A DNA stretch of 64,000 nucleotides from Amoebidium appalachense (GCA_963693365.1 CAVNZM010000006.1:124001-188000); one strand, 5' to 3'. Shown: positions 68 to 50,122, numbered from the stretch's first letter. Numbers and translations are program-made. The notes: generated by a model not told the origin, from the letters alone.

Positions 68-3000
68 GTTGACCTATCCCCCCTGTTCAGCACCCTGCCG
101 CTGGACCTAGTTGTGGCCACTGTTGCTGCCCTCCTGCTGGAGCGCAAGGTGCTGCTGGTGGCAACCAGTCTCAGTGCCCTCTCACAGGCCACACATGCCC
201 TGCTGGCCCTGCTCTATCCCTTCACATGGCAGGTGTGTGGGTGTGTGTGCACGTGGCTATGTCCCTGCAATGTAGGGATGACTGTGCACGTGGCTATGTC
301 CCTGCAATGTAGGGATGACTGTGCACGTGGCTATATCCCTGCAATGTAGGGATGACTGTGCACGTGCCTATGTCCCTGCAATGTGCTGTGCTGTGGGATG
401 ACTGTGCGCACATGTAGCTGTCCCTGTCCATCAGGGGTGTGCTGAGGGCGCAGGGTTGTGTCGGCTGGCCGATGAGCTTATGCTTGGGGATGGGCTGTGG
501 GGCCGCTGTCTCTTCTTTGCATGGCCTTTGTGATGGACACATGGCACCCTCACAACGCAGCACGTGCTCACGCGCACACCCCCACCGCCAGCACGTGCTG
601 ATACCCATTCTGCCTCTGCGCCTGCTCGACATGGTGTGCCTGCCATCGCCCTACCTTATGGGCCTGCTGGCTCCGGCCCTGCCTGCAGCCCAGAAGCTGC
701 CCATGGATGATGTGCGTATGAAGCCCATGCGAGATGCCTATTTAGGATACCTTTTAGCCCCACACCATATGCCTATTTAGGATACATTGTAACCCCACAC
801 CATATGCCTATTTAGGATACTCTGAACCCCACACCATATGCCCATTAATGACACCCTTAAACCCAAGCCACTTGCACATTTATGATGTGCATATCCCTAC
901 ACTGGCCGTATGCCTGCCTGTGCCAGCCAAAACTGACACCGCCCATGCAGGTGCTAGTAGTGGACCTAGACCGGGGCACATTTGTGCAGTCAGCAGGGGA
1001 TGAGAAGGGTCTGCTTCCCTCTGCTGCAAGCACAGCCCTGGTCAATGCTGTGGCTAGGCACACCATCCCACGTACGTGCCCTTGCATGCGCACACACACA
1101 CACACACACACACACACACACACACACACACACACACACACACACACACACACACACACACACACACACACACACACACACACACACACACACACACACA
1201 CACACACATGCACATGCACACACACACTCACACATGCACACATGCACATGCATGCACACGCACACATATGCACACATACATGCACACATACATGCACATC
1301 TGGCCACACGTGCAGTCCACTGCAACCACGCATTCACTTGTCCACACACCCTGCCCCGTGCCTGTCCATGCACACAGATGGTGCCATGTGCCTGTGTATA
1401 CACACACACAGCACATGCCCTATACGGCCAGGTGGCCTGCCCTGCCTATTGCCTGCCTCCCCCCCTCCCCCCCCCCCCCCCCCCCCCCCCCCCCCCCCCG
1501 TCGAAACTCGGGTACTGTGGATGACGTGGGCCCCCCCTGAGGATGGGCTATGCATACTCTTTATGTATGGCTTGCATTCTGCATCGTGTTATCCGTTTGT
1601 TCTTGTGTACTTCGTACTTTTGGACGCATGCAAACCCCCCCCCCCCCCCCCCCCGTTTCCCCCCTTTTTTTGCCCCCTAGTCACCTTTTTCTGCCACAGG
1701 GTTTGAACCCACCGCGCCATCCGCCATCAGCAAGGCGTTTCTGCAGCTGTACGGCAATCTGATTGGCCATTACAGGCCACACATGGGCCCTGCTAAGGGC
1801 CAGAGGGGGGCAGAGGGCTGGCAGACATTGGACACGGATGCATTTATAAAGGACTCGGCATGCCCTGTGGTAGGTGGGGGCGGGGGGAGGGGGAGGGGGA
1901 GATGGTGGGGGGGGGGGGGGGGGGGGGGGGGAGAATGGGGGATGAAGGGGGGGGGGGGGGGGGAGGGTCGGGTGGGTGGCTCGTGGGCAAGTAGGTGTAG
2001 GTGGGTCGGCAGGTTGGCCATCCTAGGTGTATGGATGGGGATTGGGTGATTGGAGGGGGGAGGGGGGAAGGGGGGGGGGGGGGGTAGGGGGGGGGGGGGA
2101 GAGAGAGGGTGGATGAGTGTGTGTGTGTGTGTGTGTGTGTGTGTGTGTGTGTGTTGGTAGGCGTTTTTTTTTTCCTCCGTGTGCTCACAGAAGGGCCGTC
2201 CATGCATGTCTACCCATGTACAGGTGCCCTCAATCACTTTGTGTGTGGCAATGGCTGTGAATGTGGTGCTGTGGGCGTTTTGATGGGTGTAGCATACACG
2301 TGTTGTTCACCAGGTGCTTTACCCCCCCCCCCCCCCCCCCCCCCCCCACCCACCCACCCAGTTTCTTGAGCGGCTAGTCAGGGAGACCACATTGTTCGAT
2401 AGCTTCATCCAGCAGAGAGAGGACCCCCAGGCCAGGGCAATGGCCGAAAAGGGTGTGTGCACGTGCATGTGCTGGGTGTGCACGTGCATGTGCATATGCC
2501 GTGTTTAGCGCCGTACACGTGCAGTAGCTGACTGCGTGCTGATGTACACACGCATTCTGTAGGTGTGAGGTTTGGTCCTATGCACGTATCCCCCCCCCCC
2601 CCCCCCCCCCCCCCCTTTCACCACCACCAACTTGTGGGTTGAGTACACATGCATCCATGCAGTTGGGCTTCTCAATACATGCACATGATACTCCTGTGTG
2701 TGTGCACTCGATTGATATGGCTGTGTGTGGCTACACCCGGGGCATGTGGACGGCCTTGTGTGTCCTTCCCCTTTTGATGCCTATGCACGTACCTTCCCCT
2801 CCCCCCCTCCCCCCTTCCCCCCCCTCCCCTTGTTGACACGTGCCCGCCCTGTGCAGGTGTCTTCGAGCAGTTTCTGAACACAGCCACACTGACACCCTAC
2901 CCCGATGATCTGCCCCTAGACCAGCGAATGTATGTCCATGCCCTCCCCCCCCCTGCCGACACCCTACCCACCCAGGCACATACGCACTTAAACGGATAGG

Positions 3001-3650
3001 AGACACCAGGCTGCTCTGCATGGGTTCCTCCCCTGTGCAGACGCATGGCACCCCCTTGAATCTAGATACGTTCTGATCAGGATGATAGGCAAAGGGTGGC
3101 CTGCACCTGTTATTGTATCTGCCTGGGACACATTTCCATCCACACACATTTTCCGTAGGGGCAGCTTTGTCCAATCAGAGATGGGTGTGGCACTCAAGAG
3201 CATGTGTATGGTGTGCCCGTGCTGGTGGGTGATATTGTGCAAGTGATGTCGGTCACGCCACATACACATATATCCCTCCCCCCCCCCCCCCCCCCCACAC
3301 ACACACACACACACACATACACACACATATATACACACAGACACACACACACACACACACATACACACACACACACACACACACACACATATTCACACAT
3401 ACACACACACACATACACACACGCGCGCGCATACACACACACATACACACACACACGCATACACACACACACACACACACACACACACACACACACACAC
3501 ATACACACACACACAACACACACACACACACACACACACACACACACACAATGCAGGCCTGGTGTGGTGCCAGGGACTGGGGACAGGGTTGGCAGGCGAG
3601 AGCAAGTCAAGAGCAAAGTCAGGCGCATGTTTGGGAGAGACAGTGCCTAG
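68..3650 (+). CDS. DENN-domain protein (Rab GEF family), 3' part; the 5' exons lie left of the window
   Basis: Phase-consistent GT-AG exons 68-232, 592-711, 951-1071, 1700-1869, 2362-2452, 2857-2929, 3557-3650 (TAG). Translation includes LLLERKVLLVATSLSALS..LLYPFTWQ/HVLIPILP..LLDMVCLPSPYLMG/VLVVDLD (core DENN) and AFLQLYGNLIGHYR..F..ETTLFDSFIQQR (dDENN). Confidence 0.9.
247..407. repeat. 37 bp minisatellite x4 in a DENN intron
   Basis: Unit GTGCACGTGGCTATGTCCCTGCAATGTAGGGATGACT starts at 247, 284, 321, 358. Confidence 0.9.
733..843. repeat. ~37 bp minisatellite x3 in a DENN intron
   Basis: ATGCCTATTTAGGATAC....CCCCACACCAT occurs three times. Confidence 0.85.
1500..1634 (+). mobile_element. 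Poly-C-associated element, subfamily A, 5'-truncated copy
   Basis: GTCGAAACTCGGGTACTGTGGATGACGTGGGCCCCCCCTGAGGATGGGCT...GCATGCAAA between two C runs; nearly identical to the 3' halves of the copies at 17378 and 20826. Confidence 0.85.
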
Positions 3651-49200: not shown

Positions 49201-50122
49201 GCATGCACACCGCAACCACACGGGCAAATGCGCTTGCATGGACATGCACACAGACAAATGCTCATGCTTGCAGGGGCACACACAGACAAAATGGTGCACG
49301 CATTCACGCGCACACACAAACATGCCCATGCATGCACCTGCACACAAACAGACTAAGGTGTACGCTTTTGTTGGCTGTTTGTGACCATATGGGTAGGCAT
49401 GGTGGCCTCTGGGCCAGCGTCCATGGGTTTGTTGGTGATGGATAGAACGTACGTGTGTGTCCGTGTATTTTTTGGATGGAGTGGGTTTTCTTCTATTGTG
49501 TTTTTCTCTGTCCGTCCCTCCCTCCCTCCCTCTTCCTACCTCCGTCTCTCTCGCCCCCTCCCTCCCTCCCTCTCCCCCTCTCCCTCCCTTCCCATCCCTT
49601 CCTCCCTCCCTTCCTCTCTCTCTTTCTCGCACCCCCTCTCTCTCTCTCTTTCTTTCTCTCTTGCTCTCTCCCCCCCCCTCCCCCCCCCCCCCCCCGCCCC
49701 CGGATGACGTGGGCCCCCCTGAGGATGGGCTCTGCTTATTATGCATACTCTTTATGTATGGTTTGCATTCTGCATCGTGTTATCCGTTGTTCTGGTGTAC
49801 TTCGTAATTCATAACGCATTCAAACCCCCCCCCCCCCCCCCCCCCCTCCCCGGGCCCCTGAAAACCCCTCTTCTCGTGAGCCTGTCTCTCTTTCTCTACC
49901 TCCAGGCCGGTTTTTTTTGTTTTGTTTTTTTTGGGGGGGGGGGGGGGGGGGGGGGGGGGGGGGGGGGGGGGGGGGACAATTTTGCTGACAATCAGTGGTG
50001 GTGGCAGTGCTCTTGCCGGACGCAGTCATCAGGCAAAGGGGGGGGAGGCGGCTTCGGGGGGTAAAAAGAAGAAAGGAAAGACACTGCTGTTTAGCACAGG
50101 GGGAGGGGCCAGGGGGAGCTGA
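37271..50122 (+). CDS. RNF10: RNF10/Mag2-like C3HC4 RING E3 ubiquitin ligase
   Basis: Phase-consistent exons 37271-37394, 37757-37941, 38326-38498, 39697-39787, 40400-40470, 40730-40820, 40920-41133, 41793-41847, 42475-42541, 43433-43540, 44083-44210, 44387-44454, 45404-45540, 45911-46025, 46280-46415, 47343-47418, 47866-48033, 48719-48852, 49996-50122. Family motifs: [94 protein letters not shown]. Confidence 0.92.
38635..39358 (+). mobile_element. Poly-C-associated element, subfamily B, ~1.6 units of 452 bp, in RNF10 intron 3, with TSD
   Basis: Internal junction at ~38901. The overlapping parts of the two units look identical to each other but differ at several sites from the 22.2 kb locus. 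Flanked by duplicated CCCCCCTTTCCCCCGCA. Confidence 0.93.
42548..42868. repeat. ~60-80 bp minisatellite x4 rich in TGCACGTGCA palindromes
   Basis: GCACGTGCATGCAGGCACTTGCACGTACG(G/T)GTGCACCTCACACATGTAGTCGCA occurs four times. Confidence 0.9.
44859..45317 (+). mobile_element. Poly-C-associated element, subfamily B, one full unit plus ~20 bp of the preceding unit; more diverged
   Basis: Starts GTGTTCCGCATTCAAACCCCCCCAGTCTTCTTTCAGAGG, ends GGCATTCAAC followed by a C tract; has a small deletion just upstream of the TGATCA motif. Confidence 0.9.
46618..47252. repeat. Compound (CG)n/(CA)n microsatellite, representative of dozens of intronic (CA)n/(GT)n arrays
   Basis: Over 600 bp of nearly uninterrupted alternating purine-pyrimidine sequence. 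Confidence 0.95.
49702..49824 (+). mobile_element. Poly-C-associated element, subfamily A, 5'-truncated copy in the last RNF10 intron
   Basis: GGATGACGTGGGCCCCCCTGAGGATGGGCTCTGCTTATTATGCATAC...ACGCATTCAAA between C runs. Confidence 0.85.

Follow-up and report, generated by a model that had tools for sequence, protein, structure and literature searches.

Short non-coding repeats at C tracts of Amoebidium appalachense: likely relatives of Naiad/Chlamys-type elements with a predicted split-core hammerhead motif

A 64,000-nucleotide stretch of the Amoebidium appalachense genome (GCA_963693365.1 CAVNZM010000006.1:124001-188000; "the window", in whose coordinates all positions are given) carries a family of short non-coding repeats lodged at C tracts, in two subfamilies, A and B. 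The repeats are predicted to be self-cutting and were probably inserted by the reverse transcriptase (RT) of a Naiad/Chlamys-type element, B units probably being non-autonomous relatives of that element and A copies its tails or derivatives. The window is eukaryotic, with an abundance of (CA)n, (C)n and (G)n stretches, and its host belongs to the ichthyosporeans, which are unicellular relatives of animals. A preliminary description of the window had favored a Penelope-type retroelement moved by target-primed reverse transcription, and we keep that preference, with a fixed 3' end, partial tandems and a 17-bp target-site duplication on its side, together with the fact that Chlamys prefers (C)n and includes members that are non-autonomous. 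Our additions are the one clear target-site duplication and a hammerhead-like motif, which is the best link to Naiad/Chlamys.

In order to define the family, we searched the window with a profile built from ten copies, listing matches down to E ≤ 10 and using the reversed window as a control. The search gave 19 matches, 16 of them at E < 1e-4; the three weak ones (44860, E 2.1; 45357, E 0.24; 61176, E 0.28) are to be set against a best E of 0.73 in the reversed window. All 11 copies listed in the preliminary description were recovered by this profile and by blastn with its two query intervals, except that 7323, 8966 and 9236, given there as starts, are the 3' ends of minus-strand copies. Among the 3' stubs it had proposed, those at 43326 and 44765 hold (E < 1e-4) and the one at 45357 is weak, whereas nothing matched at 48650 and the stub at 61176 does no better than the reversed control. 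It was right about a common 3' end and ragged 5' ends, as 18 of the 19 matches finish at positions 261-266 of 266 (the exception, the 7330 copy, at 250) and starts range from position 2 to 243, and right again about the absence of a credible open reading frame, the longest ATG frame being 61-62 amino acids per unit (62 in the 453-bp B unit). Neither terminal or subterminal inverted repeats nor an A-rich tail were seen in the family, and an inverted 5' copy or a tail of 30-40 bp, which are optional features of Penelope-like elements, was present at none of the 15 insertion events into which we grouped the matches for flank counts. Masked self-comparison and blastn of the window gave this single dispersed family and no other of note.

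The flanks of these 15 events point to the target. Upstream, at least 14 C are found in the preceding 20 bases in 12 events, whereas 4.35% of positions, counted over both strands, have as many (binomial p about 2e-14), which bears out the earlier remark that copies mostly begin in a C run. Downstream, we counted bases 8-27 instead of those directly after the 3' end, because the first C's there are part of the unit (C7 inside the B tandem); the same criterion then holds for 9 events. The C-tract bias tracks the strand of the element. The B insertion at 38635 is flanked by a 17-bp target-site duplication that is not a pure C run (plus strand; left copy 38619..38635, right copy 39353..39369); it is the only clear flanking repeat among the 15 events, next to a doubtful 8-mer at 61176.

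We consider reverse-transcribed insertion to be almost certain. A rolling-circle DNA element such as a Helentron or a Replitron would dispense with any RNA step, as would a dispersed satellite; rolling-circle DNA copying also yields tandem units with one fixed end, and a clear duplication in only 1 of 15 events would suit it. Such an origin is nevertheless extremely improbable in view of the 17-bp duplication itself, the ribozyme core in the sense strand, the strand-specific C-tract bias and the lack of visible inverted repeats, and one should remember that a duplication is not easily recognized when the target is a microsatellite (PMC8557442, in the sections drawn on here; the same scope applies to the other papers cited by accession). 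A fixed 3' end, 5' truncation and duplication suit any target-primed element, including a SINE-like (short interspersed element) partner of a microsatellite-targeting LINE (long interspersed element) of Tx1, RTE or R type with an internal polymerase III promoter, and B does have words loosely resembling an A box and a B box about 54 bases apart. These words, however, lie in mid-unit and are explained by a kink-turn arm and a GAAA block described below; ARAGORN and Rfam returned no tRNA, a tRNA-like 5' head was not found, an A-rich tail is missing, and partial tandems with a truncated front copy are a Penelope trait, so that a SINE seems very improbable.

The two subfamilies are about 79% identical over aligned columns and differ in their arrangement: all three B loci are partial tandems with a truncated unit in front, whereas A shows no tandem in the window. 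The B unit (51% G+C) has the 453 bp stated in the preliminary description. At 22238..23342 (+), a 5'-truncated unit precedes two full 453-bp units, all identical; at 38635..39358 (+), 272 identical bases precede one full unit, the whole lying in sense within a GT-AG intron (38499-39696); at 44860..45324 (+), about 23 bp precede one unit that is about 90% identical to the one at 22438, with an intact core and an outer helix that has lost 12 bp. At 22238 and at 38635, no difference separates the truncated front part from the unit that follows, while these two loci differ from each other at 18 positions (4%); each tandem must, thus, stem from one event or from one homogeneous donor. The 265 bp previously given for A, on the other hand, are too short: the copy said to begin at 20826 reaches back to 20658 (20658..21097, +, the longest A copy, 432 bp to its last non-C base, starting after a C tract), sequencing contigs extend further upstream in several runs, and summed depth stays high back to 20664, which implies an A longer than 265 bp.

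This upstream extension and the lack of A tandems in the window would also suit a reading that departs from ours only in the status of A, namely that a full-length autonomous element of Naiad/Chlamys type exists, of which A is simply the 3' tail and all visible copies are truncated, with B alone as a separate non-autonomous unit and no need for an RNA circle. The upstream part of A shows no homology to the 5' half of B (486 of 1000 shuffles score as high), and a P-x-G-L-N motif, resembling the one in endonucleases of Penelope-like elements, occurs in a short frame at 20659-20706. We tried this 15-residue frame as the C-terminal remnant of a GIY-YIG endonuclease and rejected it, as a stop lies in frame directly upstream (5 and 10 contigs). 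With that stop, with no long frame, and with the endonuclease of Naiad/Chlamys sitting at the front of the element and not at its tail, we hold this alternative as a whole quite improbable.

Near the start of the longest A copy and of the B unit, a pyrimidine tract ending in CAG resembles a 3' splice site (20688-20697 in A, 22442-22450 in B). In Penelope and Chlamys-3, an intron spans the junction of the pseudo-long terminal repeats; no splice joint was seen at the A and B tracts in sequencing run X14.

The family very probably carries a hammerhead homologue, with its three blocks in the non-circularly permuted order S-G-C. Our descriptor allowed the three hammerhead blocks in any order and gave 7 matches on both strands (128 kb), all of them inside the family and all S-G-C. 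These 7 units share a GUU triplet, a stem III of 9-13 bp, a stem I of 3-4 bp and intact CGAAAC and CUGAGGA. Among dinucleotide shuffles (3000 per subfamily), the loose form of the motif arose 28 and 23 times, a stem III of at least 9 bp once in each, and a stem II of at least 4 bp in addition in none. On 279,746 bases of unrelated loci chosen by their core words, the same descriptor made 15 matches; 12 were type II motifs of the ordinary sort, and the S-G-C order did not occur. In the window, it matched no hammerhead of type I, II or III. Twister-like and hepatitis delta virus-like readings, tried by eye against the consensus, were dropped since required pairings are missing.

In the longest A copy (all on the plus strand), the predicted split-core S-G-C domain, with its outer helix and upstream hairpin, spans 20851..21003. 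Block S (20912..20925) comprises a stem III strand, the GUU triplet with the predicted cut after 20921, and a stem I strand; block G (20948..20953) comprises C11.1, GAAA and C15.2; block C (20980..20990) comprises a stem I strand, CUGAGGA and an extra U. The strand at 20886..20891 is predicted to form stem II with 20943-20948 by 6 Watson-Crick pairs (5 in B). A three-base bulge and the GA of a kink-turn-like loop lie at 20902..20906, with the partner GA at 20966-20967. The S-G linker, about 20 bases long, holds the longest perfect palindrome of both subfamilies, two different 10-mers (20927..20936 in A, 22690-22699 in B), which could permit dimers by analogy with what was proposed for Penelope hammerheads.

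Two registers were compared for stem II. In the first one, the strand after A9 forms the stem, with 1-2 extra bases or bulges and no pair changed on both sides; in the second one, the same bases pair with the upstream strand through 5-6 Watson-Crick pairs starting from G10.1-C11.1, and two pairs are changed on both sides. The resulting split-core model, which uses the strand after A9 to close an outer helix and places a hairpin ahead of G10.1, has 46 pairs, and 89.7% of its cells are paired across 7 copies, compared with 30-45% in slid controls; five pairs, found in stem I, stem II, stem III and the return helix, are changed on both sides, and none of 500 shuffles reached the values for cells and score. 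The compensatory changes and the layout of Naiad tails (see below) favor such a split core, with a stem II made by the upstream strand, over an unbroken block C. The extension of stem III continues with the three-base bulge and then tandem GA steps, which are kept in all 7 aligned copies while the bulge varies; in its sequence pattern, it matches the standard kink-turn as defined in PMC4382518 (a duplex followed by a bulge of three bases and by tandem G.A and A.G). Folding exceeds that of shuffles only for the core hairpin (z -3.4, -2.0 and -2.5).

Several known systems resemble the family in part. Non-autonomous Chlamys elements (MRC1, Chlamys-N4_cRei) are likewise non-coding and 5'-truncated, form partial or multicopy head-to-tail arrays, target (C)n and include short intronic insertions (PMC8557442, PMC9977147), and Chlamys-1_cInc ends in a short A-C run as our family does; the mode of mobility is, indeed, already known from Chlamys. 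Unlike these, our family lives in an ichthyosporean, outside the hosts listed in PMC8557442, and has a hammerhead-like motif, which the sections of PMC8557442 drawn on here do not detect in these Chlamys families, Naiad/Chlamys being reported there without canonical hammerheads. Several Naiads are, nonetheless, annotated HHR_core in that paper, and in its supplement we read by eye, in the tails of Naiad_Plae and the consensus that precedes it in print, the same order of upstream stem II strand, S, G and C; to that by-eye likeness one must oppose that Naiads are coding, animal and (TA)n-targeting.

As for the ribozyme itself, type-SGC HRIMA-1 (PMC10085705) shares the S-G-C order, all conserved core bases and adjacent stems I and III. 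HRIMA-1, from metatranscriptomes, has an unbroken block C and an S-G linker of about 3 bases, whereas the family, a nuclear repeat, has a stem II most likely made by the upstream strand, a palindromic linker of about 20 bases and a kink-turn-like extension of stem III. According to the sections of that paper used here, S-G-C hammerheads cut in vitro, are described only from environmental RNA and DNA, and were found in no genome of a known organism. Penelope hammerheads (PMC4209133) also have a short helix I, G10.1-C11.1, an extra base after A9 and a palindromic segment, but they are type I and their palindrome lies in loop III. The metazoan non-LTR retrozymes (LTR, long terminal repeat; PMC7229834; bioRxiv 10.64898/2026.07.22.740005) resemble B in being non-coding tandem units (about 150-450 bp) with one ribozyme motif per unit and a proposed Penelope partner, and differ from it in their type I hammerheads, a G+C content under 45% and highly paired circles. 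Because it has no type I hammerhead, we do not class the family with retrozymes of the described kind; by analogy, it likely works like both a non-LTR retrozyme and a non-autonomous Naiad/Chlamys element. In mostly open-access literature, we found no paper on S-G-C hammerheads in retroelements, PMC10085705 being the only source for S-G-C, and none, in the sections drawn on here, on Penelope-like elements in ichthyosporeans, Amoebidium included (among others PMC11244446 and bioRxiv 10.64898/2026.05.21.726589).

These likenesses suggest the following mechanism. Tandem transcripts would be cut after GUU by a hammerhead whose stem II comes from the upstream strand and whose core the outer helix and the hairpin hold open between A9 and G10.1, possibly as a dimer formed through the palindromic linker. 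The unit-length RNA would then be ligated into a circle or kept multimeric; as to a circular template, we find the case evenly balanced. A GIY-YIG endonuclease would nick the G strand of a C tract, and the G-rich end thus freed could pair with the RNA's own C6-7 and prime the cDNA, which would fix the 3' end and explain its position at a C run that is found inside the tandem unit. Copying that halts at variable points, or passes the start again, would produce 5' truncation and partial tandems. A partner enzyme of the Penelope type is likely. Three collections (viral, metagenome and GTDB) yielded no partner and no match to the family motif pattern; a looser pattern turned up 24 and 4 loci there, of which blastn related none to the family and none has S-G-C stems. 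As a side observation, motifs resembling ordinary type II hammerheads turned up under a loose pattern in metagenome and viral contigs (L004, L008, L011, L013, L016, L023, L026, L027 and L028).

Not all results agree with this reading, and those that weigh against it are gathered here. The descriptor was written after the motif had been seen, and a GUU triplet makes a poorer hammerhead substrate than GUC. Rfam made 112 matches at E ≤ 1 on the window, none of them within the family at gathering score (one weak match of the long non-coding RNA type and microRNA-type noise), and its only hammerhead match is a partial Hammerhead_1 at E 2.8. The count of two-sided changes in the split-core model was equalled by 38 of 500 shuffles; moreover, related rows can beat such shuffles, and we have 7 related copies whose signal is mostly A against B. 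No two-sided change supports the outer helix and the upstream hairpin. Unlike highly paired retrozyme circles, whole units fold no better than shuffles (z -0.5 linear, -0.4 circular). The 5' ends are not clustered at the predicted cut, since copies in the window begin between 8 and 69 bases past it (8-9 for the nearest) or from 38 to more than 260 bases ahead of it, and none of the contig joints shown at the B locus (15 of 188, plus 12 of 204) begins there, although a circular or multimeric template would likewise leave no pile-up. Population variants hit 0 of 15 core sites and 1 of 35 stem sites (with a wobble pair kept) among 26 variable sites, which is not significant (P 0.19), and intact motifs sit in the sense strand of an expressed intron. 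Pfam found neither an RT nor a GIY-YIG gene in 148 of the 213 high-complexity segments of at least 60 amino acids outside the elongation factor 3 (EF3) gene, returning only AAA and one weak herpes match. Finally, no S-G-C motif was seen by eye at the tail of the (C)n-targeting Chlamys-1_cInc, as printed in the source.

Part of this list could be accommodated by keeping the same Penelope-type mobility with a fold that does not cut, or does so only with a protein, serving as a recognition structure for the RT on a long linear tandem transcript. Ends that do not pile up, the GUU triplet, an intron that tolerates intact copies in sense, a core hidden in the lowest-energy folds and the poor cutting of metazoan Penelope hammerheads in vitro (PMC4209133) would all suit such a fold. 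The core bases, however, are all present in each of the 7 young units, although these come from two subfamilies about 79% identical over aligned columns, pairs change in compensation in stems I to III, and the related S-G-C ribozymes cleave in vitro (PMC10085705). We, thus, judge a non-cutting fold unlikely as a whole account and lean slightly toward a ribozyme that would cleave in cells. We lean somewhat away from the boldest form of our reading, which we offer tentatively: an active, non-circularly permuted, split-core hammerhead held by the upstream strand and the kink-turn and switched by dimerization, in a retrozyme-like parasite of very high abundance. This ribozyme would then predate animals and be the one missing from Naiad/Chlamys, and a telomerase-related RT would use poly-C as its primer-template, in the way of a telomere.

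The family was also traced in sequencing runs. The B unit is present in runs of four organisms from five studies, none recorded as RNA. Contigs matching the A copy number 3286 (X1), 5051 (X2), 7205 (X8) and 9 (X15), and in these four runs summed depth drops about thousandfold within 30 bases of its 3' end; contigs matching the B locus number 14798 (X8), 968 (X13), 377 (X16) and 948 (X14); in these, the 3' end is followed by C runs, and C runs are also joined to the element at many positions inside it. Contig depths for A and B are not copy numbers, and the high depth at 38494-38541 is a C-run artefact. In X14, a spliced host contig leaves 38498 and resumes at 39697 across the GT-AG intron; as the intron flank is uncovered while many element contigs are present, this run weakly indicates element RNA from some loci, and says nothing of its ends, strand or level. 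One X8 contig covers the right flank from 39353 and carries 12 further letters unlike the element end, a hint of an empty site that we do not count as evidence; X13, X16 and X14 do not cover that flank.

The remaining copies are as follows. On the plus strand, blastn and the profile find 5'-truncated A copies at 1500..1641 (beginning at the GAAA block, after a C41 tract) and 49702..49831 (between C tracts), while an A copy with an intact predicted core and a predicted cut after 17464 lies at 17378..17635 (descriptor and profile) and a diverged copy with two mutated core positions at 19944..20196 (profile). In the B array at 22238, the predicted cuts fall after 22682 and 23135. On the minus strand, the profile finds an older, diverged A-like copy with a damaged core and no terminal motif at 7330..7531, a 3' stub of a third end variant at 8960..9016, whose similarity further upstream is not significant (16 of 300 shuffles), and a 5'-truncated A-like copy after a C tract at 9230..9339. 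Plus-strand profile stubs occur at 43326..43409 (third end variant, E 3.8e-08), 44765..44800 (E 6.5e-05) and, near-identical to the latter and weak, 45357..45391 (E 0.24); the one at 61176..61209 (E 0.28) is doubtful and within the range of the reversed control. Four insertions are piled in one C-rich stretch at 44765-45391, where two near-identical stubs of the third end variant enclose the B partial tandem, which implies that copies insert into each other's C tails.

Among the surroundings, a degenerate 27/95-bp minisatellite (8278-8884) adjoins the minus-strand copies, and a G-rich region at 23500-30900, with an (AG)n-rich tract of about 1.8 kb (28877-30709), holds no family copy despite many minus-strand C runs. 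At 18834-18971 and 48661-48927, a G run facing a C run forms long hairpins; the many Rfam matches to microRNA families that they attract score far under the gathering threshold, and we regard them as noise. The EF3 gene (about 12042-16391, +) has few introns, of which the last one contains a 92-bp unit four times (15627-15992); its best match (84%) is to a protein labeled Ihof, which we take to be Ichthyophonus hoferi, followed by Pgem and Sphaeroforma arctica. The gene hosting the B insertion in sense in its intron 38499-39696 lies at 37200-40500 (+); its exon frames presumably belong to a RING protein of the RNF10/MAG2 kind, which they resemble, and the fragments scanned had no Pfam match. 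Exons of an FtsH/AFG3-like AAA protease lie at 61770-63560 (+; Pfam AAA, E 8e-14), and an exon at 53940-54070 (+) is, judging by its motif, presumably that of a universal stress protein.

If our reading is true, it would place a Naiad/Chlamys-type clade in Ichthyosporea, a new branch of life for such elements. A conserved S-G-C motif in a young, high-copy repeat of a culturable protist would make both the function of an opened-core hammerhead and the role of ribozymes in Penelope transposition open to testing, and the identical tandem units and simple C-tract target would suit an in vitro retrotransposition assay, the next need named in the sections of PMC8557442 used here.

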